A stretch of DNA of 64,000 nt from Eledone cirrhosa (lineage: Eukaryota). Made by a program: the position numbers and the translations under genes. How positions within the stretch are numbered: the first letter of the stretch is position 1; every line of letters begins with the position of its first letter. The notes under the pieces were generated by a model, which saw only the letters and a program-made list of their open reading frames with translations, was not told the origin of the DNA and made no database searches. Below, one piece after another: positions 5,540 through 56,692 of the stretch. The stretch spans positions 40,052,001 through 40,116,000 of the forward strand of contig OZ024743.1 in the NCBI GenBank assembly GCA_964016885.1, in the 5' to 3' direction.

Positions 5540-5542
<3 letters not shown>

Positions 5543-5615
<73 letters not shown>

Positions 5616-5651
5616 ATATATATATATATAATATATATATATATAATATAT

Positions 5652-5683
<32 letters not shown>

Positions 5684-5712
5684 ATATATATATATATATA
5701 TAATATATATAT
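5543..5712. repeat. (TA)n microsatellite, left flank of the retrozyme-like element
   Basis: Directly visible. Confidence 0.95.
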
Positions 5713-5844
5713 AATTGAATGTGAGGTTTTTTTACAAAATGAAAAAAACCGCGGTGTCCTACACGAGTGAAAGTATAAGGAAAAAAGATGAAATCGAAAA
5801 TGCAACTGGCGTCTTTTTTTATAAAAAATATATATTTATTTCGT

Positions 5845-5887
5845 TCCTTTACCGGTTTCGCAGTTCTTCTGCTTTTGAAAAGTAGAA
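5845..5887 (-). ncRNA. Degenerate minimal type-I hammerhead ribozyme
   Basis: Minus strand reads ctactt-TTCAAAA-GCAG aagaa CTGC-GAAA-CCGG-TA-aagg. Stem II and the GAAA/palindromic stem III/UA site are intact; the CUGANGA core is degraded. Confidence 0.5.
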
Positions 5888-6101
5888 TTTCTTTTACCTT
5901 GTGTCATGAGATCGACGTTAACTTATGTTCCCATCCCTTTCTGTTTTCGTTTATCTGACCGGTAGTAGCATACTATAAACTTTAGCCACGTCACTCCAGG
6001 GCGACCGGCTGAGGTTGAAGGAACAGAATAGCGGTCGCCCTCGGGTCCTCAATTTTCAGACCCATGGATTTTATCTATTACATTCACGTATTATATTTCG
6101 A

Positions 6102-6159
6102 ATACCTGATGATATCACCGGATTCATACGGAACCCGGTCATTGAGATGATCATAGTAT
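6102..6159 (+). ncRNA. Type-I hammerhead ribozyme, copy 1 (GAAA>GAGA, probably inactive)
   Basis: atac-CTGATGA-tatcaccgg..ccggtcatt-GAGA-tgatca-TA-gtat. Confidence 0.7.
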
Positions 6160-6649
6160 AATAAATCTTTCAAGGATTTACACAAATCCAGCCTCCTGTC
6201 ATTTCATTATAATATTTAACTCCGTAATAGCACCACCAACTACAAAAACAAAGACGGTTGAACTGCTTTACGTTGAGTACTCTCTATATTATTGCATTAC
6301 GATTGACCATACGGAATAGACCAGCTCTATACAGTGGTGAACCTCAAACCTGAATAAATAATGCTCCTGAAATGTTGAGCACTTCAAAATGTAATAATGA
6401 ACAGCGGCATGGGACTGAATATATCTAACCACAATTAGAACTTTGGCTACTCGGTGTTTTCGCCTGGCCCATTGCTACTCCCCTCACAGAATATCGGAAC
6501 TTCGACGAAACTCCACGGACTAGACCATAACATGTATTGTACTGCACTGTATTAACTAAATCGCTACCCTATACTTCTGGGCATGTATAACTCACACTGA
6601 ATTCCCAGACTCGAACACACAGTGTTTCCACATCTATATGCATTATCTG

Positions 6650-7370
6650 ACTGCAACTTGAACTATATTGTATTTCTCCTGTGTCTTGAACTCTCCATTT
6701 AATAGACAACGACTCTTGTTTGTTTATTTATATCTTTACATCTTTATTTGCTGTATTAATGCTTCTCCACGTATTCTACCTCTATACATCCATGTACTTT
6801 CTACTTTCCTTATTCGGACTTTTACTCGCGTGTACCCTTAGCACACGTCACTGGAATATCTCCCCCTGGGAACATAAATACCGCAACCTGAACTATAGTG
6901 TATTTCTCCTATGTCTTGAACTCTACATTTACTAGACAACGACTATTGTTTGTTTATCTATATCTTCACATCTTTGTTTGCTGTATTAATGTCTTTCCAC
7001 GTACTCTACCTCTATACATCCATGTACTTTTTACTCCCCTTATTCGGACTTTTACTCGCGTGCACCCTTAGCACACGACACAGGATTGCCCCCCCCCCCC
7101 CCCACCGGGAACATAAATACTGCAACCTGAACTATATTGTAATTCTCCTATGTCTTGATTCTCCATCTTACCCCAACACCACACTTGTTGGTTTATTTAC
7201 ATGTTTATACCTATATATTGATATGTTTATATATTTATACCTCTGCTGTACCAATGTGCTCTTCCACGTATTCCACTTCTATGTATCCATGTATTTCTAC
7301 TCCTCACATTGGGACCTGTACCCATTAGCACACGACACTAGAATGTCTCCTCCTGAGAACAAAAATTAAA
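6650..7370 (+). repeat. Tandem repeat, ~230-240-bp unit, 3 diverged copies
   Basis: Units begin (c)tgcaac(t/c)tgaactata at ~6652, ~6881 and ~7120, and share ...cccttagcacacg.cac... Confidence 0.9.
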
Positions 7371-7616
7371 CATTACACGACTATATCCCGTACTCTACAT
7401 CCCACTAGGATAAATTACAGATCTACATAATACAATTAACGTTTCTTCATAAAAGACTCTATTTAATTAAACCCCGCAACCCAAATCCTCATAGAAGTTA
7501 TTTGAATGTTTAATCTTCAATTTTCTGTTTGTTCAATTCTCAATCTTCTTACTCCTTAGTTTTATAATGTTATTCTGAATTCTTTCAACTTCATCCGATA
7601 GAGTTAAGCAGAATTC

Positions 7617-8620
7617 TAAAGTTCCAACTTTCTGTCGCACCGTTGGGTGGGTTTTAGCGGCGGCGCGACCGGCTCCCTGGCGAACGAGCTCACCTGGAGT
7701 GCTTGGAAAAATAAATTTCCCCTTCTTTCGGTAAATGAAAAAACTCGGCGTGGCTTAGTTCGCCATGGGGCCCGGGGCGCGGCCGGTGTTTTAACCGCCA
7801 AATAGTACCTTTAAATTACAGAACAAATCGGAACTATTAGATATATCAACCTGAAACTGTTGAGCTTTAAATTTTCTAACCTCTTTAATATGGAATATTG
7901 ATTATTAATTTTTTAACTTCATCGTATAAGTCTAAACATTGTAACACACTGACCCCGAATATATTCACCTCTGCTAAGATGCGGGTCCCTGTGAAAATTT
8001 TGTCGCGCCACTCCTGGCCCGACTGTGGTGTGACATTAATATCGACCTTCCTCCCTCTCTCTTTCTATCTTCCTTCTTGTAGCTATCAACCATTACTCTT
8101 TTACTTCTCTAAGCAACATTTTAAAGTTCCAACTTTCTGTCGGACTGTTGGGTGGGTTTTAATGGCGGCGCGACCAGCTCCCTGGCGAACGAGCTCACCT
8201 GAGTGCTTGGAAAAATAAATTTCCCCTTCTTTCGGTAAATGAAAATACTCGGCGTGGCTTAATTCGCCATGGGGCCCGGGGCGCGGCCGGTGTTTTAACC
8301 GCCACATAGTACCTTTAAATTACAGAACAAATCGGAACTATTATATAATAAAAATATTAAACGGTTGAACATTAAATTTTCTAACCTCTTTAATATTGAA
8401 TATTGATTATTAATTTGTTTAACTTCATCCTAGAAGTCTAAATACTGCAACACGCTGACTCACAAGATATTCACCTCTGCTAAGATGCGGGTCCCTGTAA
8501 AATTTTCTCGCGCCAATCCTGGCTTGACTGTGGTCTGAGATTAATATCGACCTTTCTTCCTCTTTCTTTCTATCTTCCTTCTTGTAGCCATCAACCATTA
8601 CTTTTCTGCTTCTCTCTTCT
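7617..8620 (+). repeat. Tandem duplication, ~505-bp unit x2, each with a GC-rich long hairpin
   Basis: taaagttccaactttctgtcg at 7617 and 8122, with colinear sequence to ~8110 and ~8615. Confidence 0.9.
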
Positions 8621-8985
8621 CTTCCTGTCTTCCTCCCGCAGACTTATCTTCCTTCCCCCTCTTGCTTGCCTATATCTGACCGGTAGTAGTTGCCTTTCTT
8701 CTTTTAGCTGACATTAACCCTGGCTTCTCTTCTTCTTTCTTCCCCCTTCTTCTCTCTCCTTCCTTTCTTTCTTTGTTTTACCTTGTGTCATGAGATCGAC
8801 GTTAACTTATGTTCCCATCCCTTTCTGTTTTCGTTTATCTGACCTGTAGTAGCATACTATAAAATTTAGCCACGTCACTCCAGGGCGACCGGCTGAGGTT
8901 GAAGGAACAGAATAGCGGTCGCCCTCGGGTCCTCGATTTTCAGACCCATGGATTTTATCTATTACATTCACGTATTATATTTCGA

Positions 8986-9043
8986 ATACCTGATGATATC
9001 ACCGGATTCATACGGAACCCGGTCATTGAAATGATCATAGTAT
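8986..9043 (+). ncRNA. Type-I hammerhead ribozyme, intact core (AUA cleavage site after 9039)
   Basis: Stem I atac/gtat; CTGATGA 8990-8996; stem II accgg/ccggt; GAAA 9028-9031; palindromic stem III tgatca; UA. Confidence 0.85.
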
Positions 9044-9237
9044 AATAAACGTTTCAAGGATTTACACAAATCCAGCCTACTGTCATTTCATTATAATATT
9101 TAACTCCGTAATAGCACCACCAACTACAAAAACAAAGACGGTTGAACTGCTTTACGTTGAGTACTCTCTATATTATTGCATTACGATTGACCATACGGAA
9201 TAGACCAGCTCTATACTGTGGTGAACCTCAAACCTGA

Positions 9238-9617
<380 letters not shown>

Positions 9618-10377: not shown

Positions 10378-12778
10378 TTATTAAAATAACAGATTAAAGT
10401 GTAAGCAAAGAATCGCTGCTTTCACCCTTAACGGGATCTTCTGAAACTAACAAAGTCAATCTGTAAACGCAGAACTGGATATTTCAAAAAACGTTGCAAC
10501 CGGAGGAAGACAGGAAGACGATACTTTGGTTCGTGGTAACGTTCGCTGGCAAAGAACGGGAAAAAACGAATAATACGTCATTAATAGGAGCGGTGAAAAA
10601 CAATTACGCGTAAAGACAAAACCACGTTTATGGTATAAAAGAGGTCGTAGACTAATGTTCTCTTAGGTGGTGCATAGAGACGTTCTCTGGCAATGAATGA
10701 AAAAACAAAGATAATAAGTCATATGTGGAGCGTGGAGAACAATAGCACGCAAAGACAAAACCACATAAATGGTATAGCAGAAATCGTAGACTAAATTCTA
10801 ATTAGGAGACCAAATGAATCTCCGCTACAGAGTTAAGAACAAAGTAAATAAATACAATACAGAAGTAATAGAAACAAATAAATACATACACGCAAACAGA
10901 TACGTACATACACAAGCATACGCAAAACCTTACCATGGGTATACAAAACCACGCACATATAAATATGTGTGTGTGTGTGTATTCTTGTGTACAAATAATA
11001 AATAATTATATAAACGTATATAAGTAAATAAATACGTATATAACAAGCGCACACGCATACCTACATATAAATACACGAATGTTCGGAGACGTGAGTCAAC
11101 TAAAACAAGTACACATATACACACACCCACCATACGTACGAACCTGCACACTCACGCGGACGCAAAACTCCCGTGTACGCATAGCCAAACCCTAAATACC
11201 AGAATATGTAAAAATGATATGCTATAACAGTCAAATATACGTACGAGAAGGTATACATACCTTCACATCACATACGGGTAATATATACTTACCTATGCAA
11301 ATAAGTAAAGGAATAAACAAAACATATACTTAGCTCCCACATAAAGACGTAAATATCCACGTATAGATCGTGATATCCGTTAGGGTATAACGTGGGTCTG
11401 TAATACAGGAAAGTTTTGTGCAATTTATGTTTACAGGCCGAAATTGCATCAGATTTTTTGTTTAAGATGTGGTCTGTAGCGTGGAGAATTTCCAGAGCCT
11501 CAGCGGCGCAGAGGTCACATGGTCTTTTATTTCCGTTATACGATCTAGCCCTAGCTAGGATCTCCCAGTGTAACTTATATTGGGTGTGGTTGTCTTTTAA
11601 ACTCCAGATATAAGCTGAAAGTGACGTCATATTCCTTCTTAGAGGGTAACGAAAAGAATGGGTATGCATGTAAAGACGCTGCTTGAAACTATTGGCGGTT
11701 AACCCTATGTAGGCCCTACGGGACGTGGGTGTTACAACCTTACATTTGTAGACAATGTTACTAGAGAGGCATTTCCCGGATAGGGGGCAATCAGCCCGAT
11801 TCCTACAATTACAGTTAGTACTAACTACAGGGTTGCACGTGTTCCTACGGCTAGGTAGTTTAGCTAAATTTGAAGCTGTGATGTTATGTGCAAGGTTAGG
11901 AGTTGTAGAGTAAGAAATGTTAATAGTATTTCTATTAAAAATGTTACTATATTTATGTGTAGGGGAAAATGCTTCGTAATAAGGGAAAGAAAGTTCTTAG
12001 CTAATGGTGTGGCCACCTCCATATTATATGGTGGGTTAAACCAACAAATGCGACTGGATCTATTTCTTCTAGGTCTATATTCGTACTCTGTATATGCTAC
12101 CTTATCGACAAATCCACTTCGAGCAAGCGCTTCATTGTAATAAGTGGAATGGTCGTTGAAAATGCGCTCGTTGGTGGAAAGACGGGAAAGCCTCAACGAA
12201 ACGTTTCTTACCAGGTTCTTGGTTATGCTGGCAGGAGGGTTGGAATGCTTACTTATGTAATTAAGCGTATCATTCGGCTTTCTATACGGGTAATACAAGC
12301 CATTCAATAAATTGAGGGTAACGTCGAGGTAATTAACGACCGAGAGATTGGCCTCAACCTGTATAGAGAGGTTGAAGCCTTTAAAGAAGGCTGTGAGTTC
12401 TTTTCTGAACCTGTCGCAAGCACGAGATCCGCACTTAGTCATGGTCAAAAGACCATCGTGACGGTACAAACCACCGCCCGCGTTGGGGAATTCGTCCTTG
12501 ATAGAGAAAAGAAGGAAAAGGCCAATAAGATCAGTAACCTCCGCAGAGTCACTGGCGCCCATACTCACGGCGAATGGGGTACTATTGGATTTTTTAATCC
12601 AAATAGAGTCGTCGAAATTAATCACCGACTTTCGCGCATTAAGGATGACATCAACTCAAATATATATATATATATATATATATAGTAATAATAAAACATG
12701 TGAAGACTAACATCCAAAGAAGATCCCGTTAAGGGTGAAATCACCGATTCTTTGTTTAAACTTTAATCTGTTATTTTA

Positions 12779-20951: not shown

Positions 20952-23900
20952 TTACAGATATATACTCAGAGTCGGCCCATTCACTCGGGCCATTCTTGCT
21001 TCTCTCACCCATCTTTCAACAAAATGCTGGGAAGAGAGCACTTCCTTCTCTACTCTGATTTTCCTTTTCAAATGAAATTTGAAAAAGTCAATCAGAGCAT
21101 CACCGAAGAGGTAAGTGCTCGTCTTCAGCCCTTTCAAACGTGTCCACCATACTATCCCTTTCGCCATGGCCACCAGACAGATAAAAACTGCCTGCCCTTC
21201 CCGGCTAAAGGAGGAGGGCGGGGCAATCCTCACGATAGACTCAGATGATAGCTGGATCCGTCCTAAACGCGACAGCAGGTGTTCGACATAAACCCACAAG
21301 TCAGCAATTTTCGGACACTGGACGAGTGCGTGCAGGACGGTTTCGTCGCCCTGCGCGCATCTCGGACATGCCCGGCTGACGGCACCTCCATGCCTGTAGA
21401 GTTTATCCCGAACTGGCAAGGCTCCTCGGTAGCACTGCCAGGCCAGAGATTTCTGGAAGTTGTCCATAGGCCCTGGCCCGAAAGTTCTTCCGAAGAGATT
21501 GGCTAGTTGATTTTCGTCGACGCCTAGAGTTTCCCCAAGTACGTCGTCGCTCTTCCCCTCCACTAATCCTCTATAGAACGCCGAGGTGGAGTTTCCACCG
21601 ATCACATTGCCCGATTGGTCGAGGGCTGTGAGCGCCTGAAGACATTCCAGTCTCCAGGCGCTCCCTCTCGGTCTTCGCTTGACCCAGGACTGCAGCTCCG
21701 TCAAGGAAACGAGCTGGGGAAAAACGCGTCTAGCAAACGGCGACCACACCTGATCACCGTCGAGGAAGAGGTGGAGATGTCGTAGCCTGAGCGCGTGCCT
21801 GCGCATCATCAGCCACGGCATGCCCAGCCCTCCACGGAGCGGGTGTTGACAACAGATGGACCGCCTGACCATCGGAGCACGTCCCTTCCACAAAAAGCGA
21901 AAGAGCAAACGCTCCAGCGCAGTCAGGCGAGGCTTAGGACAAGGTACGACGGTTAGGCGGTAGCAGATGACAGACGCGATGTACGCGTTAGCCACCTCCG
22001 CTCGACCTTTCAGGGATAGCTTCCTCTCCGCCCATTTCTGGGTGAGAGAAGCCACCCTGCTCGTCACCTCGTCCCAGTTTTTGTCCGTCTGGAGGTCCGG
22101 ACCGAACCAGACCCCTAGCAATTTAACCGGTCCGTCCGTCCAGCGCCCGACGACGCTGTTGGACGGCATGGACCTGCCTCTCCAGGTGCCGAGCTGCAGG
22201 CCCACTGACTTTTCCTGGTTGATCATTGCTCCTGTCACCGCTTCGTATTCTCTTAGTGTAGTGCCGATCGCCTCGATGTGTTTGGCGTTCGGCACCACTA
22301 CGGTGACATCGTCGGCATATGCTGACACGGATCTTCCGCATCCTAGTTCGCGCGGGACCCCCCTCAACGTCTCCAGTTTGTGCAGTAATGGCTCGAGAGT
22401 CAATACGTACAATAGGGACGAGAGGGGACATCCTTGGCGGACCGAGCGCATGATGTTGAACGGTTCCGAAAGGTGACCGTTCACTCTCACTACAGAGCAG
22501 ATGTCGCTGTGCATGGCAGCGATCCAGCCTCTGAAGACGGGCCCAAAGCCAGCCGCCCTCAGGACTGCCGCTAGGTAACGATGGTCGACCCTATCGAAGG
22601 CTTTCGACTGATCTAAATTGATCAAAGACCCACCCGTGCCAGGTTCCCTAGCTACCCTCTCTACGATGTATCGCATGAGGTGGAGGTTGTCGTGGATGGA
22701 TCTGTCGGGAATGGCGCATGTCTGTGCCTCTCCCACCAGACCACCAACGACAAGGGCCAACCTCTTTGCTAGCACCTTGGCCAAAATCTTGAACTCTGTG
22801 TTTAGCAGAGTTATGGGCCTAAAATTATCTATGTTATCCCCCTTGTTCGGATCCTTTCTCAGCAGCGCCACCGCTCCTCGGCTCACAGAGCTGGGAATTC
22901 TCCCGTTCTGTTGCCAGTTGCAGTAGACGTCCGCCAAGAGGCCTCCGAACAAGTTTGGCATTTGTACGTAAAGTTCATAGGGCAGACCATCCAAACCAGG
23001 CGATTTGCCCCTTGTGCAACTAGTCATTGCATCCCGTACTTCAGCGGTTGTTATCGGCTTTTCGCAACACTCCGCCTCAGTGGCCGAAAGCCGCGGCAGT
23101 CCGTCGAGGTAGACACTAAAGTCCATCCCTCGATCCGGCCCGCCACTGCCCCCGAACAGTTGAGCGAAGTGTCGCTGAAAAGCTTCACACATTTGCCCGG
23201 GATCGAGTAGCATGCGCCCGTCGTGGTCCACCAAAGACCGGATCGTGGCTTTGTTGCCACGACGCGCCTCCGCCACTCGGGCCCATTCAACGGCTTTCGT
23301 CCCCTCGTGTCTGAGAGCACGCACCCTAGCTCTGACAACGCAGCCTTCGTGCTTTGCATTGAAGAATTGGTCAAGGGCCAATTTCGCCGCAAGTCCGTCG
23401 GTCGCGATGCCTTTGCTAAGCGCCTCATCTAATTTTCTAACTAATTCTCTCTCTGCTCTATTTTTCTCTATTGCTAAAGTCTTACTAAACCTAATGGACT
23501 CTATTCTAATTGCTCTTTTCAGAGCAAACCACCACTTGTTGTTGACGATGGCCCCCGTCAACGCCCGCTTAACTAGTTCGCTAATCCGGTCTCTGTAGGC
23601 CTTGAGCGCTGGTAAGGACGCGTTTAGCTTCCAGTAGCCGGGTCCTCGTCTATGAAGCCTATCTAAGTCAAGCACACAGATCACGAATTTGTGGTCCGTG
23701 TAGCTGACTATCTTGAATTGTGGACAGCCTATGCTAGACCTATCTATTTCCCTACAAAATACTCTATCTAGATATGATCTGGATGACCCTATGCGATTTG
23801 TCCAAGTCCACATTGGTACATTCGGGAAATCCATTCGGTACCTGTCAGACAGTTCAAAACGTCTGAGCAGGTTGGTGAGACTCTTGCACCCTCCTTCCCT

Positions 23901-24371
23901 ATCCACTAATCCCACACAATCCCAGCGTGCATCTAAGATCCCGTTCCAGTCGCCCACTAACACTAAAGAGCGGGACGTTCCAAGAAAGGTCTCCAGACGC
24001 CGGAAGAAATCAGGCCGCCCTGCTCCTGTCGGGGCATAGACGGCCACTAACCTGAAAGCTTGCCCGTCTCCGCTGGTCACGTCCAGCACCACCAACTTAC
24101 CTTCTGGGTCCAGGAAGATGGCCCGTATGGCAAGATCCAAACCTCTCCGAAAAAGCACAGCAACTCCTCCCCCCGATCCCGGACGGCTGGGAGATGCGTA
24201 CACATCGTAGCCGCCGAAGATCGGTGCGAAAGCCTGTGCTTCGGAGATTCTGGTCTCGCTGATGGCCACTACATCTATGTTTAGTGACCTGAGGTCGTTG
24301 AGCAGGTGGCCCTGCTTCCATGACGACCCCAAGCCACGCGCATTTATGCTGCCTATTCTGAGTGAGGTCAT
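20952..24371 (-). CDS. Tx1-type LINE ORF2p: APE endonuclease + reverse transcriptase + C-terminal zinc knuckle (1139 aa, uninterrupted)
   Basis: APE motifs SINARGL, ISETR, VYAP, GDWN, SYLDRVF and TDH. RT motifs KSPGLDGL, NFRPITLLN, DQSKAFDRV, RQGCPLS and YADD. C-terminal CPRC...ETVLHALVQC. Confidence 0.97.
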   Translation of the reverse strand: MTSLRIGSINARGLGSSWKQGHLLNDLRSLNIDVVAISETRISEAQAFAPIFGGYDVYASPSRPGSGGGVAVLFRRGLDLAIRAIFLDPEGKLVVLDVTSGDGQAFRLVAVYAPTGAGRPDFFRRLETFLGTSRSLVLVGDWNGILDARWDCVGLVDREGGCKSLTNLLRRFELSDRYRMDFPNVPMWTWTNRIGSSRSYLDRVFCREIDRSSIGCPQFKIVSYTDHKFVICVLDLDRLHRRGPGYWKLNASLPALKAYRDRISELVKRALTGAIVNNKWWFALKRAIRIESIRFSKTLAIEKNRAERELVRKLDEALSKGIATDGLAAKLALDQFFNAKHEGCVVRARVRALRHEGTKAVEWARVAEARRGNKATIRSLVDHDGRMLLDPGQMCEAFQRHFAQLFGGSGGPDRGMDFSVYLDGLPRLSATEAECCEKPITTAEVRDAMTSCTRGKSPGLDGLPYELYVQMPNLFGGLLADVYCNWQQNGRIPSSVSRGAVALLRKDPNKGDNIDNFRPITLLNTEFKILAKVLAKRLALVVGGLVGEAQTCAIPDRSIHDNLHLMRYIVERVAREPGTGGSLINLDQSKAFDRVDHRYLAAVLRAAGFGPVFRGWIAAMHSDICSVVRVNGHLSEPFNIMRSVRQGCPLSSLLYVLTLEPLLHKLETLRGVPRELGCGRSVSAYADDVTVVVPNAKHIEAIGTTLREYEAVTGAMINQEKSVGLQLGTWRGRSMPSNSVVGRWTDGPVKLLGVWFGPDLQTDKNWDEVTSRVASLTQKWAERKLSLKGRAEVANAYIASVICYRLTVVPCPKPRLTALERLLFRFLWKGRAPMVRRSICCQHPLRGGLGMPWLMMRRHALRLRHLHLFLDGDQVWSPFARRVFPQLVSLTELQSWVKRRPRGSAWRLECLQALTALDQSGNVIGGNSTSAFYRGLVEGKSDDVLGETLGVDENQLANLFGRTFGPGPMDNFQKSLAWQCYRGALPVRDKLYRHGGAVSRACPRCAQGDETVLHALVQCPKIADLWVYVEHLLSRLGRIQLSSESIVRIAPPSSFSREGQAVFICLVAMAKGIVWWTRLKGLKTSTYLFGDALIDFFKFHLKRKIRVEKEVLSSQHFVERWVREARMARVNGPTLSIYL

Positions 24372-24405
24372 GTTGAAAAGGAGTGGAAAAGATGGGAAAG
24401 ACCAC

Positions 24406-26394
24406 TTACCTTACTTCTCGTAGGGGAAGGACGGCTTTTCCATCCTTTTCACTGCTTGTGGCCTCATCAGGAAGGATGTCCTTATAAATCCTCCTGGAGA
24501 GTGCTTGTCGGAAGTCTCCGATGTCTTTGGGGAATTTTTGTTTTAGTGTCATGTACGTTTTCTGTGTGATGCGAGTGATTTGTATGTGTGGAGGTGGTGT
24601 GAATTTTGGGGTTGTTGTGTAGTCTTTTTCTGTGATGCTGGTGTTGTGTTGGATGTAGTGTAATAATTGCTTGTTGTTCAAATTTAATGCTGTGTAGTGT
24701 GTATCGTTTTGGTTGTTTTGTTTTGTTTGCGTTTGTTGTGGGTTTGTTTCTGTTTCGCTTTTTGGTGACTTTTGTGGTGTAGGTGTAGGTGGTGCTGGGG
24801 ATGATGATGGTGATGGTGTTGGTGTTTGGGTTGATGGGGTTGGTGATGCTGGTGTGGATGGTGGCATATCTGTCCTAACTTTTTTGTTTCTTAGTTTATT
24901 TGTTTCCCTCTGTATTTTGTTTTTGGAGGGGGAAGGAAGAGAATTTTTTCTTTTTTGGTTTCTTTTTTTTTTTCCGGATATCGTTTCCCACTCCTCGTCG
25001 TCACAATCTGTCTCCAGTTGTGATAGGCCGGGGAGTGGAAAATCCTCCACAGCCGTTAGTTTTGGTTGTGGTGTGGTGGATGGTGTAGGCGCTGGTGCTA
25101 GTTCTGAAGTGTTGGGTGGTGGTGGTGTTGGTTTTGCTGGTGGTGGTAGTGGTGTTGGTTTTGCTACTGTTGCTGGGGTTGTTGCTGTTATAGTTGCTTC
25201 TGTTGTTGCTGCTACAGTTGTTGCTGCCATCTCTGCTACTGGTGGTGTTGATGGTTTTGTCACTGGGGTGGGTAGGAGAGGTGGCCTCAACCTTTTAGCC
25301 TGAGGGCAGAAAGCCCTTAGGTGGGTTCCTTCACCACAAACGACACACCTAGGTCTTCTGCCCTCGACAATTACCGTGAGGTGGCTGCCGTCAGTGAGGT
25401 CTATTACCTCTGGGATCTCCTCAATGCTTTTTTGGTCCGCTTGGATCAGGAGCTCCATCCCAGATCCGGACCAGTTTTCCTGCTTTTCTTTTGCTACTGC
25501 TATTATTTTCGTGTTGGCTTCGATGCCGGTGAGGACAGCCGCTATTAGCCAGGGAATTTCGATGGCCGGTGGAACGTGGGTCACCCTGATCTTTACGAGT
25601 CTCTGGCCACAATAGCTTGGGACGAGTGTGAGGTCGTCACTTTTTAATGGGGCCATGGAGTGTTCTCTAGCCTCCTCTGGTGTTTCAAAGAACACATCCA
25701 CGGTTCCATACTTTTGCCCACGTCTGATGTGGGTTTTTCTTGCCCACACATGTCCCAAAGCTTTTTGGATTTGGGACTCGGATGCCCGTTCCACTCGGCG
25801 CGATTTTACATTTATTGTTCTAAACGACACGGTGCACAGGCGCCGATGCTCCATTTTATTAGGTGGGGGGGTGAGGCTGACCCTGTACCCATCTTTCTTT
25901 ACCATTTGTTTGGCATTTTCTAAATCTTATTGGGTTACCGTGAACGCTTCGAATTGTTTTGCTACGATGGCGAAACTGAGGGTCGGTTTTATAATGTCAT
26001 TGTTGTTGTTGTTGCTATCGTTAATATTAATTTTATTTTCAGTTGTGGTGGTTGTGACGTCAGTCGTCTTTGGTGGGGAAGAGTCCATTTTGCTTGATTT
26101 CATTTCGACGTCACGAGTTAATTTATTTTTTTCTTCTTTTGTTTCTGTTGTCGCGGTGGTGGTGGTGGTGGTGGTGGTTGTCGCGGTGGTGGTGGTGGTG
26201 GAGGGTTTAACACCTGCAGTCATTGGTAATGGCGGGAAATGAATGTCTGCCTGAGACAAATTTAAAATATTGCTACTGCTTATATTTTTTTTTGTGTTGG
26301 CAAACGTAGTAACATTTACAATGGTGGTGTCGGTGTGAGGTGTTATTTTGTGAGGAAGGCTTTCAGCTGCTTCGTGCAGAGGGGAATTAGCCAT
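24406..26394 (-). pseudogene. Tx1-type LINE ORF1 (gag-like, CCHC zinc knuckle), 662 codons interrupted by a single in-frame TAA at 25927-25929
   Basis: ORFs 25927-26394 and 24406-25905 are in the same frame (...FTVTQ*DLENAKQMVKK...). Contains the CVVCGEGTHLRAFC knuckle and a Pro/Thr-rich linker. Confidence 0.88.
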
Positions 26395-27462: not shown

Positions 27463-29670
27463 AATCACCAGGCCCAGACGGTGTGCAGGGGTATTGGATT
27501 AAAAATATAACATCCCTCCACCCGAAACTGACAATCATGTTCAATGACTGCTTGATGTCAGGTGAGGTACCAGAGTGGTTGACAAAACGTACCACAGTTC
27601 TGATAATGAAAGACCGAATCAAGGGTAATGATATTACCAACTATAGAGCTATCACATGTCTGTCCGTAATGTGGAAACTGTTGACAAGCATTATGTCTGA
27701 GGAAAGCTACCATCACCTCCACACAAACAACTTGTTACCGGACGAACAGAAAGGATGCCGAAAGAAGTCACGTGGTACAAAGGACCAGTTACTTATTGAT
27801 AAAATGGTAATGAGGAATTGCAAGAGGAGACACACTGGTCTTGCCATGGGATGGATAGACTAGAAAAAGGTATTTGACATAGTGCCTCATTCTTGGATAA
27901 CCAAAAGCCTGGAGATCTTCAAGGTGACAGATAACATCAGACAGTTGTTGGGCAAAAGTATGAAGTCCTGGGAAACAGAGTTAACATCAACTGGAGAATC
28001 CTTGGGAAGCGTGAAGATCAAGAGAGGTATCTTCCAGGGAGATAGTCTGTCCCCTCTGTTGTTTGTCCTTGCCCTGATGCCCCTGACCAGTGTACTGCGA
28101 AAAGTGAGAGCAGGATACAGGTTGGGAAAGTGAGGGCTTACCATCAATCACCTCCTCTTCATGGACGATCTTAAGCTCTTCGGGGAGAGTGAGAAGGAGT
28201 TGGGTGTGCGTGTTGACACTGTCCGTATTTTCAGCAATGATATATGTATGCAATTTGGTATTAGTAAGTGTGGAGTCATTGTGATGAAGAGGGGTAAGTT
28301 GAGCAGAAGTAACGGAATCCAGGTACCAACAGGTGAGATGATAAAGGAAATTGACTCTGAAGAAGGATACAAGTATTTGGGCGTTCTGGAGGCTAATGAC
28401 ATCAAGAACAAAAAGATGAAGGAATTGATAAGAACTGAATACATTCGGAGAGTAAGGAGCGTATTAAAGTCACATCTGAACAGTATGAATGCCATAAGTG
28501 CAGTAAATTCCCGAGCTGTGTCTATTATTAGGTACAGTCCGGGAATTCTGAGATGGAATGTTACTGAACAAAAAGAAATGGATAGGAAGACTAGGAAGCT
28601 ATTGACTTCCTACAGCATGTTCCATAAAAGGAGTGATGTCGATAGACTCTACTTGAGGAGATATGAAGGTGGAAGAGGTCTTATCAGCATAGAGGACTAT
28701 GTTCAGATGGAGAAAAACAACCTACACAAATACGTGACTGATAGTAAGGAGCCAATGCTCAGAACTGTACTGAAGGAGGGGACAATAGGCCAGGGGATGT
28801 CCAAGGAGGAAATAACATCAAGGAGAAAGAGCAGCCTTCAGGAAAAATCCCTTCATAGTACCTTCTTTGAGAAAACTAAATTTAGAGATCCACAGACATG
28901 AAACTGGTTGAAAAGAGGAGACCTTAAAAAGGCTACAGAAGGAATATTAATGGCTACGCAGGAGCAGGCAATCAAAACGATGTGGTTGAAACACCATATT
29001 TACAATGAGGCGGCTAGCCCAGTGTGCAGCATCTGTGGAGAGAGAGAGGAGACTGTGGCTCACATTGTATCCGAGTGTAAACACCTAGCCCAGACTCACT
29101 ATAAGGGCTGGAGACATGATGTGATGGGCAGGGTGATCCACTGGCACCTATGCAAAGTAATCAATTTACCACATTCTGAGAAATGGTATGAGCATAAGCC
29201 AGAGGCGCTGATAGAAAACGATCAGGTGAAGGTGCTGTGGGATTTTAGGATACAGACGGACAAGAAACTGGAACACAATAGACCTGACCTGGTGGTTGTG
29301 GACAAATAAAAAAGATGGTGCCTGATTGTGGATGTGGCCTGCCCATTCGATACAAGAGTGCCAGAGAAGGGGAGGGAGAAAATTAACCGATACCAGGACC
29401 TAAAGTGGGAGGTAAAATGGATTTGGAACTGCCATGAAGTCAAAGTGATCCCGATTGGCATAGGCGCACTAGGGACTATCTCAAAAGTTTCCAGGGATGG
29501 TTAAAGAAAATTGGCCCCTTCACGCTTTGTGGAATGCTTCAAAAGGCATGCTTGCTGGGAATAGCAAGAACCGTCCGATACGCCCTGAATATCTGAGGCT
29601 GCAGGTAGTGGCTTGATATTCATTTCAACAAACTTTCCAGTTAAGTAACATCAATAACTGAGACTCAAAG
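27463..29670 (+). mobile_element. 5'-truncated R4/Dong-type LINE (subfamily B) pseudogene: RT, CCHC, RLE
   Basis: SPGPDGVQGYWIK, NYRAITCL, RGIFQGDSLSP, FMDD, CSIC..EETVAHIVSEC and RPDLVVVD, with several premature stops. Bounded by (TAA)n on both sides. Confidence 0.95.
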
Positions 29671-29683
29671 AGTAATAACAATA

Positions 29684-29711
<28 letters not shown>

Positions 29712-29715
<4 letters not shown>

Positions 29716-29752
29716 TTTCTTTATTAACCACAAGGGTTTACATAAAGTAGAT
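29712..29752 (-). mobile_element. Extremely 5'-truncated (~40 bp) Tx1-type LINE 3' end
   Basis: atgatttctttattaaccacaagggtttacataaagtaga is identical to the sequence from ~20688. Confidence 0.8.
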
Positions 29753-29774
29753 ATATATATATAATAATAATTAT

Positions 29775-29807
<33 letters not shown>

Positions 29808-29810
<3 letters not shown>

Positions 29811-30021
29811 TCCAAATCCTTTTTACCTCCCACTTTAAGTCCTGGTATCGGTTAATTTTCTCCCTCTCCTTCTCTTGCACTCTCGTGTCGAATGGGCAGG
29901 CCACATCCACAATCAGGCACGATCTTTTTTCTTTGTCCACAACCACCAGGTCAGGTCTATTGTGTTCTAGTTTCTTGTCCGTCTGTATCCTAAAATCCCA
30001 CAGCACCTTCACCTGATCGTT
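29808..30021 (-). mobile_element. Inverted internal fragment of the Dong subfamily B RLE domain
   Basis: NDQVKVLWDFRIQTDKKLEHNRPDLVVVDKE...KWEVKRIWN on the minus strand, running into (ATT)n. Confidence 0.9.
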
Positions 30022-31124
30022 TAATAGGGAATAATAGCGAATAATAGCGAATAATAGGGAAGAAGACGCACGATGTGGTAGAAGGTCATGAAATCGCTCC
30101 CGTAAGTTTTGAATTTTGAACATATTTAAACCATTTGTGAAATAACAACTCTTAGTACAAATGTTACGTAAAGCATCCGGCTTGAGCCCCAAAAAAATTC
30201 GGACCCAAAATATATTGTTATAAGGCTCAAATATTCAAATATTCAACTTTGTATTGTACATTGTATATTAAAAAAAGAAAATGGCTATAAATGGAAGAAA
30301 AAGACCCACCCTCCTCTGTATACACTATATAGAACAGCCAAACAACACCAATCTCACCAACACCAGAAACCAGATACACCACCTACTCCATCACCTCTCT
30401 GTGTACACTAAACACAACAGCCAGATAACGGCAACTTCACCACCACCACAACCAATCTCAACATAATAATGATAATAATAAATACTATTATTATTGTCCC
30501 AAGTTTTAACAAAATGCTTAATTCCAACATTAAGGGAATTTATGTCAACACATGTACGCGACTAACCCCATAGATTCACCGAACGGACATCAGTAACGCC
30601 AACGCCGCCCATCCATCATTACTACCACTATCCCATCACCGCCGCCACCACTCCTTCATTGCTACCACCGCTACAACACCATCACTACAGTGATACGATC
30701 ACATCACCACCACCACTGCCTCAGTATCGACATCACCATCACCACTGTCTCAGTATCGCTACCGCCGCTATTCTCTCCCATTGCTTCCTGCTAGTTGCTG
30801 CTAGCACAGCACTGCCACCACATTATAGAATTCCTACTAAAAAAGAGGAAGGCATCAAAATATATAGATAGACTCAAAAGAAAAAACAAAAATCAAAACC
30901 AAACCAGCACAGCAACAACAACAAAAAAAAAACAAACAGAGAAAAACAAAAACAAAAAAAACGTAAAGAAAATAAGAATGAAGAGAGAAACAAGCGGACG
31001 GACAGAGAAGAGAAGGGAAAAACTAAGTCAGACATTCGAACACTACATTACAATGAAACTTACGCTTATTCATTTTGGGGGCTTTTTCTGCCTGTTTGTT
31101 TGTTTGTTTGTTTATTTGTGTTCG

Positions 31125-34100
31125 TCTGCAGCGTGGTGATAATGCCACACAAGAGCCAAGTGGATCGACTCAACCACCGGAGACGGTGAATCCGCAGATG
31201 GTGATGTAACCATACATTCGCCAATCCTCGATAAGAGTGTTTAAATATCGAACCTAAAGAGTTGGAATGACGGTGAAATGGAGACTAGAACGTCATGTGA
31301 CAGACTCTCACCCAACAGGTGCTCCCTGGCTCAGCAGCAGGAACCTGGCTGTCAACCAAATACTGCTGGTGTCGGAGGAAGAAGAAAAAGGAAAGGGAAC
31401 AGAACCAACTGGACGAAAGAATTGAATAGAACTGTTATGCAATGTTACCTGAAAAGTATCCCCAAGGGCTATAGGAGACGGATGCATAACATCTGGAACG
31501 AGATTGGTCTATTTAAATTAGATGAACAAAAATTGGCTGGGCAGGCTCGGGTAATAAGAACTAATGGGTGGATAAGCGAGCTGGAACTGGAGGAACTGAG
31601 CAGAGAGATTAGTTTGGAGATGGAGGGTGGAGTATGCCAGGCAAACGAGCCAGTGTGAAATGAAGGTGAAGAGGTCGAGAGAACGGAGGAACCCGAAGCA
31701 GACAATGATCTGAATACTGAGATAAATAATACCTGGACCAGAGATACGGCCACTGAGGAGATGAATGCTGACGGGCTAGGACAAGATTCGGTTGACATCC
31801 TAAATTTAGTGGTAGATGAATTGAACAATGATAGTGGGAGACCTATGAACCTAAGATTTGTAGACAGGAAAAAGTTAAAAGAAACAACAGCTAAGGTAAA
31901 CAAAGTCATCCCATACCTTGAGGCGAGGAGCCCACCAGTGCAACAATATCCTCAAAGCAACAGCAAATACGGTGAGGAAACTACTTGGTATAAAAGCGAG
32001 AGGAAACAACAGACAAGAAACAGCAGAGCCTTGGGGGAAGAAACGACTGAGTGGTCAAATCAGGGAAATGAGAAATAACATTGGAAAGCTTGACTCCCTA
32101 CTGAATGGAACACTAAAAAACATAGGCACTAAAAATAGACTGGAAATAAAGTACAAAACTAGGAGGAAAATGCTAAATATTATCATAGAGGAACTGAAGC
32201 AACGTATTGTAGCAAAGAGTGCAAAAATCAGGCGATACGAGAACAGAGTCAGTCAGTATAAACAGAACCGCATGTTCGACAACAACCAGTAGATGCTGTT
32301 TGGACAGATTGAGGGGAAAGAAAGAGGCAACGACTTGATCCCTGAGGCGGAACAAACTAAAACATTCTAGAGAGGAATATGGGAGCAGGATGTTAGACAT
32401 AATGACCAGGCAGGGTGGATTGAGACAGTACAGAGGGAGATCGGTGAGCAGGCACACCAACAAACTGATTTGAGTATCACAGTTGAAACTCTTAAGGGGC
32501 AGGCCAAAAAACTAACCAACTGGAAATCACCAGGCCCAGATGGTGTGCAGGGGTATTGGATTAAAAATATAACATCCTTCCACCCGAAACTGACAATCAT
32601 GTTCAATGACTGCTTGATGTCAGGTGAGGTACAAGAGTGGTTGACAAAAGGTACCACAGTTCTGATAATGAAAGACCGAATCAAGGGTAATGATGTTACC
32701 AACTATAGACCTATCACATGTCTGTCCGTAATGTGGAAACTGTTGATGAGCATTGTGTCTGAGGAAATCTACCATCACCTCCACACAAACAACTTGTTAC
32801 CGGACGAACAGAAAGGATGCCGAAAGAAGTCACGTGGTACAAAGGACCAGTTACTTATTGATAAGATGGTAATGGGGAATTGCAGGAGGAGACACACTGA
32901 TCTTGTCATGGGATGGATAGACTACAGAAAGGCATTTGACATGGTGCCTCAATCTTGGATCACCAAAAGCCTGGAGATCTTCAAGGTGGCAGATAACATC
33001 AGACAGTTGTTGGGCAAGAGTATGAGTTCCTGGGAAACAGAGTTGACATCAACTGGAGTATCATTGGGAAGCATGAAGATCAAGAGAGGTATCTTCCAGG
33101 GAGATTGCCTGTCCCCTCTGTTGTTTGTACTGCGACCAATGAGAGCAGAATACGGGTTGGGAAAGGGAGGGCTTACCATCAATCACCTCCTCTTCATGGA
33201 CGACCTTAAGCTCTTCGGGAAGAGTGAGAAGGAGTTGGATGTGCTTGTTGACACTGTCCGTATTTTCAGCAGTGATATATGTATGCAGTTTGGTATTAGT
33301 AAGTGTGGAGTCATTGTGATGAGGAGGGGTAAGTTGAGCAGAAGTAACGGAATCCAGATACCAACAGGTGAGATGATAAAGGAAATTGACTCTGAGGAAG
33401 GATACAAGTATTTGGGCGTTCTGGAGGCTGATGGCATAAAGACCAAAAAAATGAAGGAATTGTTAAGAACTGAATACATTCGGAGAGTAAGGAGCGTATT
33501 GAAGTCACATCTGAACAGCAGAAATGCCATAAGCGCAGTAAATTCCCGAGCTGTGTCTATTATTAGGTACAGTCCGGGAATTCTTAGATGGAATGTTACT
33601 GAACAAAAAGAAATGGATAGGAAGACTAGGAAGCTATTGACTATCTACAACATGTTCCACAAGAGGAGTGATGTCGATAGACTCTACCTGAGGAGATCTG
33701 AAGGTGGAAGAGGTCTTATCAGCATAGAGGACTGTGCTCAGATGGAGAAAAACAACCTACACAAATACGTGACTGATAGTAAGGAGCCAATGCTCAGAAC
33801 TGTACTGAAGGAGGGGACAATAGGCCAGGGGATGTCCAAGGAGGAAATAACATCAAGGAGGAAGAGCAGCCTTCAGGAAAAATCCCTTCATAGTACGTTC
33901 TTTGAGAAAACTGAATTTAGAGATCCACAGACATGGAACTGGTTGAGAAGAGGACACCTTAAAAAAGCTACAGAAGGAATGTTAATGGCTGCGCAGGAGC
34001 AGGCCCTCAAAACGAAGTGGTTGAAACACCATATTTACAAGGAGGAGGCTAGCCCACTGTGCAGGATCTGTGGAGAGAGAGGAGACTGTGGGTCACATTG

Positions 34101-34704
34101 TATCCGATTGTAAACACCTAGCCCAGACCCACTATAAGGGCTGGAGACATGATGTGATGGGCAGGGTGATCCACTGGCACCTGTGCAAAGTAAACAATTT
34201 ACCACATTCTGAGAAATGGTATGAGCATAAGCCAGAGGCGGTGATGGAGAACGATCAGGTGAAGGTGCTGTGGGATTTTAGGATACAGACGGACAAGAAA
34301 CTGGAACACAATAGACCTGACCTGGTGGTTGTGGACAAAGAAAAAATATCGTGTCTGATTGTGGATGTGGCCTGCCCATTCGACACGAGAGTGCAAGAGA
34401 AGGGGAGGGAGAAAATTAACCGATACCAGGACTTAAAGTGGGAGGTAAAAAGGATTTGGAACTGCCATGAAGTCAAAGTGATCCTGATTGTCATAGGCGC
34501 ACTGGGGACTATCTCCAAAAGTTTCCAGGGATGGTTAAAGAAAATCGGCCCCTTCACGCTTTTTGGAACGCTTCAAAAGGCATTCTTGCTGGGAACAGCA
34601 AGAACCCTCCGATACGTCCTGAATATCTGAGGCTGCAGGTAGTGGCTTGATATTCATTCCAACGGTCTTTCCAGTTAACTAACATCAATGACTGAGATTC
34701 AAGC

Positions 34705-38088: not shown

Positions 38089-38131
38089 GATATTAAAGAA
38101 ATGGAAATTACATTTATAAAACCATATTTAT

Positions 38132-38191
38132 TTCATTATACATATTTCAGGGATATCATATTAAAAATATGGTATGCCCTCTTCAGATAAA
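38132..38191 (-). ncRNA. Type-I hammerhead ribozyme in the Penelope pLTR
   Basis: Minus strand reads tttat-CTGAAGA-gggcata..tatgatatccct-GAAA-tatgta-TA-atgaa. Confidence 0.8.
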
Positions 38192-39480
38192 ATACAATAT
38201 ATAGACGGCTTTATAAATACATTTGACATACCTTAGAGTTCACAACTTCAATTTAAAAAGTTGTTACGGTAGTGAAAATGTTAAGGACGGTTAGAAAGAA
38301 AGACGGAGAGAAAAAAAAGAAAAAAGGAAAAAGAAAAAGAAGGAGAAAAGAAAAAGAAAGAGCGGAAGGTGAAGAAGATGAAGAAATGTATGTAAAGAGA
38401 AAATCACCAAATGAGAGATCTATGAGGGAAGGGGGTACTGTAATTATTCATTTGTTTATTTATTTATTTAGTGTTAAGGATACGGGGAGAAATAAAAACA
38501 AAATAAAGAGAGGTAGATCGATTAATATCTATTATACGAGGTGGGAGAGATAGGGGAGGGGTGATATATAGGAGATAGAGTTAAAACAACCGATATAAGA
38601 GTAGAAGGGAGGAGGAGAGGAGATATACTTAGAAACAAAAATGATAGTTTTAAAATATTATGTTTCATCAGTCTATCAATTCCTATGAATTATAATGTAA
38701 ACATCAATATTCCTGAATGAGACACATATAAATAATGTGTGAAAAAAATAGTGACTATATGTTTAGTTTAAAAATTCATAGGTTTATAATCAAAATCTGA
38801 GATAAAACCTCAAAAAAATACTGGAATACATAGGTAAATATGTGTTTTCATGAAAAAAGAGAAAAGAGAAAGAAAAAGAGAAGGTTATCTCAAACTGACT
38901 TTATAGACACATGTGAGTTTACATGATCAGCTCTGTAAATTTGTATTTCATATGGAACTCTTCATTGCGTTAAAAAGATTTTACCATACACATAAGTGTA
39001 CATATATATATATACATAAAATATACATTATTAATAAGAATAATATTCTTGCCCTTTCTTACATGATTATCGTACAAGCATAGAATAGAACAGGTATCAA
39101 TATATTAAAATATTAAAAACGCCAAGAATATTTTCCTCCCCAGAATATCTAGGGCCGTAATAAAAACACAGTGTGCCCAGCATATCAATCAATCCCTCCA
39201 ATTTATTTGACAATACTGCCAAGTTTATTAGAAGCAATCAGAGTCAAAAGCAAACAAAACCAAAATTATTCACCAAACTTATTTAGCAGAAATCCTTCAA
39301 AAAAACTCTTATATTTATCTAGCATGAAAATGTTATTCAATAGATTTGGATCATCACCGTTTTAAGGTAGTTTTATTACATTATTAATTATATATTCATG
39401 AAGAAGGTTTAAAGAATTGAAGGAATCGAAAGATTTATCGCCAAGTTTTCTAAAATAATTAAAAGTCTTAAGTAAATATA

Positions 39481-39984
39481 TTACATTTTAAACTTATACT
39501 TATATTTAAAAGTTGAGTTCAATCTATGTCTGCAGCAACTGAATAAATTGGTCCGTAAATTAAGGGGATTTTTAGATTTTAGTATAAAGAATATCTCCTC
39601 TGCGCAGAGGTCACATGTCTCAGAGGAGGAATTAAAAGGAATCCCTCTTGAGACTATATTCCAAACCGTCGAATATCCAACGTTATCATGTTTAAGTTGC
39701 CAGAGTAAGCCTGATAGTGATGTTGAAGATTTTTTGTTTGGATCTGTGAAAGAATTCTTGTGATTATTATAGCGAAGTTTAAATTCTGTCGAGGTGGAAC
39801 CAACATAATTAAAAGAATTTAAGTCAGTTTTAACATTACAGTTGTATATTATATTTTTAACTAAGCAATTGTTATTTAACGGGCATTTAGATCTATCTCT
39901 ACAGTTACAGTTGTTTACTTGAATATTGTTTATGCTATTATCGGTATTTTGGCTAGGTATGTCAAATTTATTAAGGTATGTCAA
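39481..39984 (-). CDS. GIY-YIG endonuclease domain of the Penelope-like element (C-terminal remnant)
   Basis: CNCRDRSKCPLNNNCLVKNIIYNC..FNYVGSTSTEFKLRYNNHKNSF...TSLS...CDLCAEE...CRH. Confidence 0.88.
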   Translation of the reverse strand: MTYLNKFDIPSQNTDNSINNIQVNNCNCRDRSKCPLNNNCLVKNIIYNCNVKTDLNSFNYVGSTSTEFKLRYNNHKNSFTDPNKKSSTSLSGLLWQLKHDNVGYSTVWNIVSRGIPFNSSSETCDLCAEEIFFILKSKNPLNLRTNLFSCCRHRLNSTFKYKYKFKM

Positions 39985-40028
39985 ATTTATTAAGGTATGT
40001 CAAATTTATTAAGGTATGTCAAATTTAT
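39953..40028. repeat. 19-bp tandem repeat (aggtatgtcaaatttatta) x4 at the inversion junction
   Basis: Directly visible. Confidence 0.9.
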
Positions 40029-40053
40029 TTATAAAGCCGTCTATATATTGTAA

Positions 40054-40113
40054 TTTATCTGAAGAGGGCATACCATATTTTTAATATGATATCCCTGAAA
40101 TATGTATAATGAA
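40054..40113 (+). ncRNA. Type-I hammerhead ribozyme in the inverted pLTR
   Basis: tttat-CTGAAGA(40059-40065)-ggg..ccct-GAAA(40097-40100)-tatgta-TA-atgaa. Confidence 0.8.
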
Positions 40114-42471: not shown

Positions 42472-43035
42472 GGACATTATTATTATTCTATACATTCCTT
42501 AGATCAAACTAAATATGTTAACAACAATCTTTTAGTAATGTCTTCCTTGTGAAATGTGTGGTCTTGTTTTGCTTAACTAATGAATATTTCCAGCTCTGTG
42601 CGCCTACCTTCTGCATGAACCCAGCCACCTAGCTGCTTTCCACTGCATATTGCATCACGTGACATCGAGGTAAATCAGTGAGGAGTGGGGTGTTAAGAAG
42701 ACAGTAGCCGAACTATTACTATGAACTATAGTAGCACTTTTGGCAAATTTTTGCTCAACAAAATAATTTGGAGATAATTTGTTGAACAAAAATTTGCCAA
42801 AAGTGCTACTATAGTTCATAGTAATAGTTCGGCTACTGTCTCCTTAACACCCACTCCTCACTGATTAACCTCGATGTCACGTCATTGATTCTTTTGAATT
42901 TGCCACCGACCAAGTAGGCAGTGATTTTTTCAATGTCTTGGAATTTAGTCCTCGCTTGCTTTTTTCCATGCACTGAATTATTTTTGTATAAGTTCCCTGT
43001 GTCCACGCATCGCCTGGGAACTTAGCTCAGAATTG

Positions 43036-48395: not shown

Positions 48396-48968
48396 ATGTG
48401 TACAGAAATCATATATTATATATTTATTTTATATATATTTATATTTATATATATACTAATTTATATATATACTAATTTTATATATATTTATATTTATATA
48501 TATACTAATTTTCATTTAGTCCAGAATTAGCCGTCGAAACGGCTTGAGCTCAGCTGTCGGGGTCTTACTGGTTCCTATTACCCACTCTACTACCTCAAGT
48601 ATTGAGTACTTTGGTGCGTTATGGTCCACCTGGTTCCTTACCACATTTCCTTCGTTATATATATATATATATACAATACAGTATGTCCATAGAATCATTT
48701 GATAAAATATATACACCATTGCCTCTCCCAATCAGCATAATCAACCACACAAAGAACCAATTAAACCAGGCTATAAGATTAAAAGACAACTATGAAGAAA
48801 TAATAGATAAATAAATGACAGCTATCTATTCGCGATCAACAACCATAAAGTATTTACCCAGCATTTCCAATAGCACGTGGGAATCGATTAAATATATCGT
48901 CAACCATACACAATTAGGTATAAAATCAAAGTTAGAAGAAAAAATGTATATAAACATAAGAAAATTAG

Positions 48969-56647: not shown

Positions 56648-56692
<45 letters not shown>

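Follow-up and report, generated by a model that had tools for sequence, protein, structure and literature searches.

A hammerhead-bearing non-coding element in Eledone cirrhosa

The window analyzed here is a 64,000-nt stretch of contig OZ024743.1 of Eledone cirrhosa, and the subject of this work is a hammerhead-bearing, non-coding element at its positions 5888 to 9244, found to belong to an abundant family with the insertion marks of Penelope-like elements (PLEs). The element consists of a complete unit of 2884 nt (6361..9244, + strand, as for all of its features) that follows an upstream copy head-to-tail at the junction AAUAAAUAAU. This upstream copy (5888..6360), a pseudo long terminal repeat (pseudo-LTR or pLTR), corresponds to the last 473 nt of the unit (8772-9244), and the two direct repeats show 9 mismatches and no gaps over 473 nt (98.1% identity) at a period of 2884. 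The original prediction had reported near-identical 469-bp repeats 2884 bp apart, which was confirmed, except that the first 4 nt of the repeat had been missed. Also correct was the claim of a hammerhead in each repeat: copy 2 (8986..9043) is an intact minimal type I hammerhead (C3-G8) with a palindromic helix III and a predicted cleavage site AUA|G after 9039, and copy 1 (6102..6159; predicted site after 6155) has GAGA instead of GAAA (A6146G).

The unit starts with a non-coding 5' region (6361..6649) that is kept, with indels of uneven length, in 8/8 aligned subfamily representatives, followed by about three diverged tandem copies of ~230 bp (6650..7370). The remaining interior contains two copies of a structured domain, at 7632..7820 (core 7693-7748) and 8137..8324 (core 8198-8252), which lie within the two copies of a 505-bp repeat at 7605-8109 and 8110-8615, respectively. 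A hairpin is located 5' of the hammerhead (8879..8928; second copy at 5995-6044). Two fixed ends follow the hammerhead, namely, a short end (S, 9090..9102; 6215 in the upstream copy) and a long end (L, 9244), up to which a 145-nt "tail" extends (9101..9244).

The element had also been described as set between (TA)n tracts. This holds for the right end, which adjoins a (TA)n target tract (9245..9614), but not for the left end, where the (TA)n tract (5540..5713; both tracts were identified with Tandem Repeats Finder) is followed by 174 bp of another PLE. This piece (5714..5887, - strand) lies outside the element. It comes from a coding Neptune-like PLE family, whose 3' end (the long end) it represents in inverted orientation, and no TA separates it from the element, to which it is linked 5'-to-5'. 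It has 1006 first-look candidates in the genome, was found ~0.85-1.1 kb behind a Neptune-like open reading frame (ORF) at two loci (L068 and L074), and carries a U3-A8 minimal hammerhead, the core of which is altered in the window copy. Among the single-armed copies checked, 1 of 41 had such a left junction with a Neptune-like 3' end. Contigs from four public runs (one study) contain the family, and none of their listed pieces bridges the left junction of the window copy. Position 6146 is an A in these contigs, and the G therefore looks private to the window copy, as far as can be judged from the reads of that study.

Copy number and unit organization

A genome search with the repeat returned 2751 first-look candidates, and 40/40 scored at least 97% identical. 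Exact genome-wide matches numbered 5519 for the pattern of the intact hammerhead core, 1127 for the interior core (0 for the control pattern in both cases), and 153 for the unit start. This decrease from 3' to 5' is the gradient expected because of 5' truncation, and most copies are short 3' pieces. A single-copy local duplication, one of the outcomes named in the original prediction as refuting it, is incompatible with these thousands of dispersed copies.

Forty-five unit starts were examined, 43 of them in 40 fetched regions and 2 from earlier loci; this sample is non-random, comprising all listed sites of one variant and the early-listed sites of the other. In 38 of the 45 (37 by pattern and one, L154, by eye) the start is joined head-to-tail to the 3' end of the unit itself. 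Because this continuation is seamless, the repeat is the 5'-truncated second unit of a head-to-tail tandem, and not an LTR. Its length differs between copies, from ~40 to >700 nt, and the earlier notion of a fixed-length terminal repeat was abandoned. Intact cores are present on both sides of 14 of the 45 unit starts, so that intact elements exist, as had been supposed, and an intact ancestor need not be inferred.

The hammerhead-to-hammerhead distance was 1938-2840 nt in 18 of 20 cases and 1134 and 465 nt in the remaining two, as compared to 2884 nt in the window, and unit lengths across subfamilies are 1.9-2.9 kb. Over the last 370 nt, identity among eight subfamily representatives is 83-98%, with values of 83-93% for distant subfamilies. 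Seamless copies reach up to 2.1 units in one arm, at a locus with a full dimer (L156), and no long tandem arrays were seen among the loci read.

Insertion signature

TA follows 150 of 160 fixed ends, matching the (TA)n targeting of Neptune and Hydra type. The two fixed 3' ends lie ~60 and ~205 nt past the hammerhead site and are 145 nt apart. Of the 66 two-armed (5'-to-5') insertions, 54 could be classified: 52 combine a long and a short end, in either arrangement, two have two short ends, and none has two long ends, leaving 12 unclassifiable (in this count, as in that of the fixed ends, a few loci overlap). Within an insertion the median arm-to-arm identity was 97.35% (72 comparisons), as compared to 97.6% for tandem copies (25 comparisons). 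Arm-to-arm identity is thus on a par with that of tandem copies, so that both arms stem from one RNA species; an origin of the arms from RNAs of different subfamilies was ruled out, given the 83-93% identity of distant subfamilies.

The family thus has variable pseudo-LTRs that arise through partial tandems, 5' truncation, an inverted arm, a tail, and a minimal hammerhead in the pLTR. PLEs were found to form partial tandems and inverted copies, to carry a tail at one end, and to be biased towards (TA)n (PMC8557442). For an Anolis PLE studied in vitro, both DNA strands are cut and extended, reverse transcriptase (RT) starts at two internal sites that define the tail, and hammerhead mutants still insert, so that cleavage is dispensable (PMC11167929).

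Hammerhead motif and the state of the template

The hammerhead comprises stem I (AUAC/GUAU), the core CUGAUGA at 8990-8996, a 31-nt stem II with a U.U at its base, GAAA, and a helix III of two pairs within the 8-nt palindrome AUGAUCAU. An Rfam search of the window, of the element, and of a diverged unit gave no credible match and did not detect the motif. For the monomer, the predicted energies are -3.0 kcal/mol for the active and -13.9 kcal/mol for the inactive fold, and the double hammerhead is predicted at -22.6 kcal/mol versus -27.8 kcal/mol for two monomers. The motif is a PLE-type minimal hammerhead that is predicted to be inactive as a monomer. With the active monomer fold ~11 kcal/mol and the double hammerhead ~5 kcal/mol worse than their competitors, cleavage is predicted to be weak or assisted. 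This agrees with the minimal, dimer-dependent hammerheads with weak cleavage that metazoan PLEs carry (PMC4209133). In 70 arms that had not been selected on the hammerhead, column conservation was 0.95-0.98 within the motif and 0.83-0.88 in its flanks, which indicates that the hammerhead is conserved across subfamilies.

None of 102 arms has its 5' end at the predicted cut site. In a pattern search at this site, ~9 5' ends were counted by eye among the 100 matches listed out of 131. For a control site the count was 3 among the 100 listed out of 1166; the control was swamped by a subfamily variant, so that the comparison is rough. Copies do not accumulate with their 5' ends at the cut site. In seven two-armed insertions, which belong to several subfamilies and mostly share further private changes between their arms, the cut site reads AUG in both arms; the rough expectation for this under independent mutation is <1. 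NUG is not known to be cleaved by hammerheads. If this rule applies here, the templates of these seven insertions were not hammerhead-made circles, and circles would not be obligatory for insertion. In direct tandems AUG was absent from the 100 matches listed, with <1 expected.

A different indication comes from L181:3734-5104 (G000 C1 near 164.67 Mb), where one arm holds about two copies of a 465-nt deletion unit and the other arm a single copy. This unit derives from the long element, contains three intact hammerheads in these copies, and is within the size range of animal retrozymes. Its deletion junction occurs exactly three times in the assembly, all within this locus, and the assembly contains no source array. 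Unless there was a tandem source that no longer exists, a template with a single junction must have been re-used, either by a circle or by a jump.

Interior structure without coding capacity

The claim that the interior lacks a protein-like ORF was borne out. The longest stop-free frame in the interior of the window copy, with its threefold ~230-bp and twofold 505-bp repeats, has 149 aa, none of seven interior frames reached the Pfam cut-off, and tblastn against five PLE protein pieces gave no match. In 23 extracted units the longest stop-free frame was 190 aa, again with no PLE match by tblastn at E<=1. The window element therefore lacks the ORF with a telomerase-like RT and GIY-YIG endonuclease that is typical of autonomous PLEs.

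Two structures stand out in this non-coding sequence. The hairpin, situated 60 nt 5' of the hammerhead, has a folding z of -3.1; in 10 variants 91% of the cells are paired and 4 pairs are changed on both sides. Its covariation score was reached by 0/500 shuffles, a result to which the tool attaches a caveat on the relatedness of the sequences. The second structure is a ~190-nt domain, present in two copies in the long units of the subfamilies examined. Its almost invariant core consists of a closing helix and two hairpins, and its GC-rich flanks are variable and predicted to pair; the whole is predicted to form a long rod, at the tip of which sits a nearly invariant three-way junction. A covariance model of the domain, with 138 matches in 81 sources, found it in loci of this family, and the domain was absent from the coding-PLE loci included in this search. 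Rfam gave no match for it. The folding z of 18 variants was modest (+0.4 to -4.3). The three-way-junction structure is plausible from these predictions, but covariation cannot confirm it because the core pairs hardly vary; the hairpin is better supported. An identity of the domain as tRNA-, 7SL-, SECIS-, or telomerase RNA-like sequence was considered and found no support.

Coding PLEs and the search for a helper

The genome contains very young coding PLE families, Neptune-like with a 777-aa frame and Hydra-like with a 713-aa frame, as well as older families. Since Pfam failed to recognize the PLE protein pieces, these labels are based on linker motifs compared with PMC8557442 rather than on a tree. 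The 3' untranslated regions (UTRs) of these coding PLEs measure 0.7-1.4 kb and contain a hammerhead near their end. Neptune-like families have U3-A8 hammerheads with a CCGG helix III, and C3-G8 motifs are present in some Hydra-like ones. The C3-G8 core of the element is nearer to the motifs behind two Hydra-like fragments than to the U3-A8 motifs of three Neptune-like families, which is a weak hint towards the former. A pattern meant to find further families sharing this helix III gave 84 matches, 82 of which are variants of the present family; the other two (L196 and L197) showed no family or PLE match. A second Neptune-like family (family B), to which the 174 bp left of the window copy belong, was considered as helper on the basis of that junction; this idea is not supported, since the junction occurs in 1/41 single-armed copies and combines two long ends.

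Several coding PLE copies are present in the window itself. Positions 51850-56900 (+), with ORF pieces at 52659-53405 and 53582-55693, correspond to a very young Neptune-like family, many genomic copies of which keep the 777-aa frame and some a 427-aa upstream frame; its 3' UTR is ~1.1 kb long and has a U3-A8 minimal hammerhead. At 10380-12655 (-) lies a copy, truncated at its 5' end, that belongs to a very young Hydra-like family with 713-aa frames elsewhere and a CxCX5C linker; the copy ends in (TA)n and has an atypical hammerhead-like motif near its 3' end. A second, diverged Hydra-like fragment lies at 38100-40100 (39511-39987, -), with two occurrences of a C3-G8 minimal hammerhead in opposite orientations (38186 -, 40059 +). 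Outside the window, a further family that targets TA was encountered (L084:3585, L019:2878, L025, and L190); its minimal hammerhead is of the C3-G8 type, with a long stem II and a UGCGCA helix III, and it has long and short ends of its own.

Proposed mode of mobilization

We consider it likely, with a probability of roughly 0.7, that this abundant non-coding hammerhead family with Penelope-type marks is mobilized in trans by the RT and GIY-YIG endonuclease of a coding PLE of Neptune or Hydra type. The copy number, the lack of an ORF, the (TA)n targets, the end pattern, the inverted arms, the tandems, and the hammerhead conservation are read directly from the genome, and the steps of the mechanism are modeled on the in vitro data for the Anolis PLE. 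A copy with a partial tandem would give rise to a read-through RNA to which the helper protein binds; in the target (TA)n tract the two strands would be cut, and RT would start at two internal sites past the hammerhead, one per strand, generating the long and the short end. The S end would represent the first and the L end the second of these starts. Most copies would probably derive from RNA that the hammerhead had not cut. The rare copies of more than one unit likely found new source loci and would require re-use of the template, by a jump between the repeated ends or by a hammerhead-closed circle, and it is at this source-regenerating step that selection on the ribozyme would most likely act. 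The three-way-junction domain and the hairpin are candidate cis signals, likely for transcription, stability, or helper binding. The window element may be regarded as a long non-autonomous PLE that behaves like a PLE minus the ORF; non-autonomous PLE derivatives are already known. The proposal of a non-autonomous Penelope class in the original prediction is supported in this respect, given the high copy number, the absence of an ORF, and the PLE insertion marks.

A number of observations weigh against mobilization in trans from uncut RNA. No helper match was obtained: 45 coding-PLE loci, representing only a few of the many families, share only short low-complexity similarity with the element, and the same is true for 26 stretches that lie behind matches to the endonuclease. 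At 145 nt, the tail is longer than the 30-40 nt of described PLEs, and both fixed ends are AU-rich and target-like, whereas the Anolis start sites are reported to have no homology to the cut DNA. The AUG shared by both arms could have spread by gene conversion between neighboring arms. Lastly, L225:1184-1443 is a two-armed insertion that forms a perfect palindrome centered on the cut site, with arms of 60 and 205 nt, as would be expected from cut RNA; it is only suggestive because palindromic junctions also occur at other loci (L186). This locus and the 465-nt unit of L181 lean towards circles or cutting, yet both have other explanations.

These loci also count in favor of a true long retrozyme, an idea that the original prediction had raised with its self-excised 2884-nt monomer, and in which the hammerheads would cut as a dimer and the ligated 2-2.9-kb monomer would be, as a circle, the main template of the PLE enzyme. 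It would account for the seamless copies of up to 2.1 units, for the repeated mini-unit with three intact hammerheads and no source array in the assembly, and for the conservation of the hammerhead, and for the intact cores on both sides of 14/45 unit starts; in addition, cDNAs run through the cut site, on which L225 is centered, and a circle model has been proposed for PLEs (PMC4209133). What makes this version improbable, though clearly the strongest competitor, is that the inactive monomer fold and the two-monomer state are predicted to be more stable than the active forms, that no long tandem arrays were found among the loci read, and that the seven insertions with AUG in both arms are excluded as products of hammerhead-made circles if NUG is uncleavable. 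Minimal PLE hammerheads are moreover weak (PMC4209133) and dispensable for insertion in vitro (PMC11167929). A related and similarly doubtful variant is that of a 2-2.9-kb hammerhead-closed circular RNA that parasitizes Penelope, in which the ribozyme would serve only to form circles that regenerate sources and the domain would recruit the helper RT without shared sequence; such a parasite would be two to three times as long as the longest animal retrozyme described in the literature examined.

The interior might alternatively be the long 3' UTR or a decayed ORF of a coding PLE, with the copies as truncated products, in line with the hammerhead-bearing 3' UTRs of the coding PLEs here and with the predominance of short 3' pieces. 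This possibility, which the original prediction had named as a potential refutation, is largely refuted and very improbable, since the unit closes on itself at 38/45 starts, 0/23 units from several subfamilies have an ORF or a trace of PLE protein, none of 40 loci chosen by their place in the hammerhead list runs into an ORF, and the interior domain is missing from the coding-PLE loci searched with the model. Even less can be said for a non-autonomous element of LTR type (LARD/TRIM or a plant-type LTR retrozyme) flanked by 469-bp LTRs, or for a local duplication. Such a reading is prompted by the direct repeats with which the window copy begins and ends; the variable length of the upstream repeat and the thousands of dispersed copies refute it, the many inverted arms, the ends into (TA)n, and the type I hammerhead are equally at odds with it, and the fixed LTRs, type III hammerhead, and short target duplications of such elements were not found.

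Comparison with known elements

The family resembles the endonuclease-containing (EN+) PLEs Neptune, Hydra, and Penelope/Poseidon (PMC8557442, PMC4209133, PMC11167929) in its pseudo-LTR partial tandems, 5' truncation, inverted 5' arm, optional tail, (TA)n bias, and minimal type I hammerhead with palindromic helix III before two fixed ends. Unlike them, it has no ORF, a much longer tail, and a conserved structured interior, and it shares no sequence with the coding PLE families sampled. With animal non-LTR retrozymes it has in common the non-coding nature, one type I hammerhead per unit, head-to-tail copies (intact cores flank 14/45 starts, and L156 is a dimer), and a proposed dependence on PLEs (PMC7229834; bioRxiv 10.64898/2026.07.22.740005); the U.U at the base of stem II is as in an axolotl motif. 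Animal retrozymes are typically ~300 nt long and measured 51-972 nt in a 2026 survey, whose tandem search was limited to a period of 1000 (bioRxiv 10.64898/2026.07.22.740005). The present units of 1.9-2.9 kb, with 18/20 hammerhead-to-hammerhead distances at 1938-2840 nt as compared to a retrozyme size of ~150-1000 nt, differ in this respect, as does their occurrence mostly as dispersed truncated or two-armed insertions without long arrays.

The non-autonomous Chlamys PLEs, e.g., MRC1 (PMC8557442), likewise have pLTRs and head-to-tail copies. They occur in green algae, their 3' end is generally like that of the autonomous partner, and most are described without a hammerhead, whereas no similarity to a partner was seen here among the families sampled. 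Another precedent is the trans-mobilization in Adineta vaga of unrelated, partly non-coding DNA between pLTRs by a PLE (PMC3846280; for pLTR-carried cargo in rotifers, see also PMC6431247). Those cases are single events, in contrast to the thousands of copies, several subfamilies, and own conserved interior structures of the present family. Short non-autonomous Penelope elements have been reported in butterflies (10.1101/596502). Literature searches retrieved no described 2-3-kb hammerhead-bearing non-coding family; Repbase and the supplements of papers, which were outside the scope of these searches, may hold this family or similar ones.

The family extends hammerhead-bearing non-autonomous PLE derivatives to 2-3 kb, a range missed by tandem screens capped at 1 kb. 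As it is free of the constraint of an ORF, its conserved parts, i.e., the hammerhead, the hairpin, the duplicated three-way junction, and the two fixed ends, are candidate cis signals of PLE mobilization. The strict long/short polarity of two-armed insertions lends genomic support to the model of two start sites and both strands that in vitro work on the Anolis PLE produced. With this family it also becomes possible to ask why PLEs keep a ribozyme that is not needed for insertion, conserved in lineages and apparently dispensable in single hops.

Other features of the window

A putative non-LTR retrotransposon at 20952-25926 (-) combines an open endonuclease/RT frame of 1152 aa with an upstream frame of 506 aa and looks nearly intact. 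Two related RT-coding non-LTR fragments lie at 27600-34630 (+), where inverted repeats of 212 bp are located at 29216-30022 and 34250-34461. A near-perfect 175-nt hairpin at 42683-42858 and a 310-bp inverted repeat (91%) at 48751-49704 are possibly stub-sized two-armed insertions of other families. Positions 62737-63732 (+) contain what we take to be the integrase-like frame of an LTR retrotransposon fragment.

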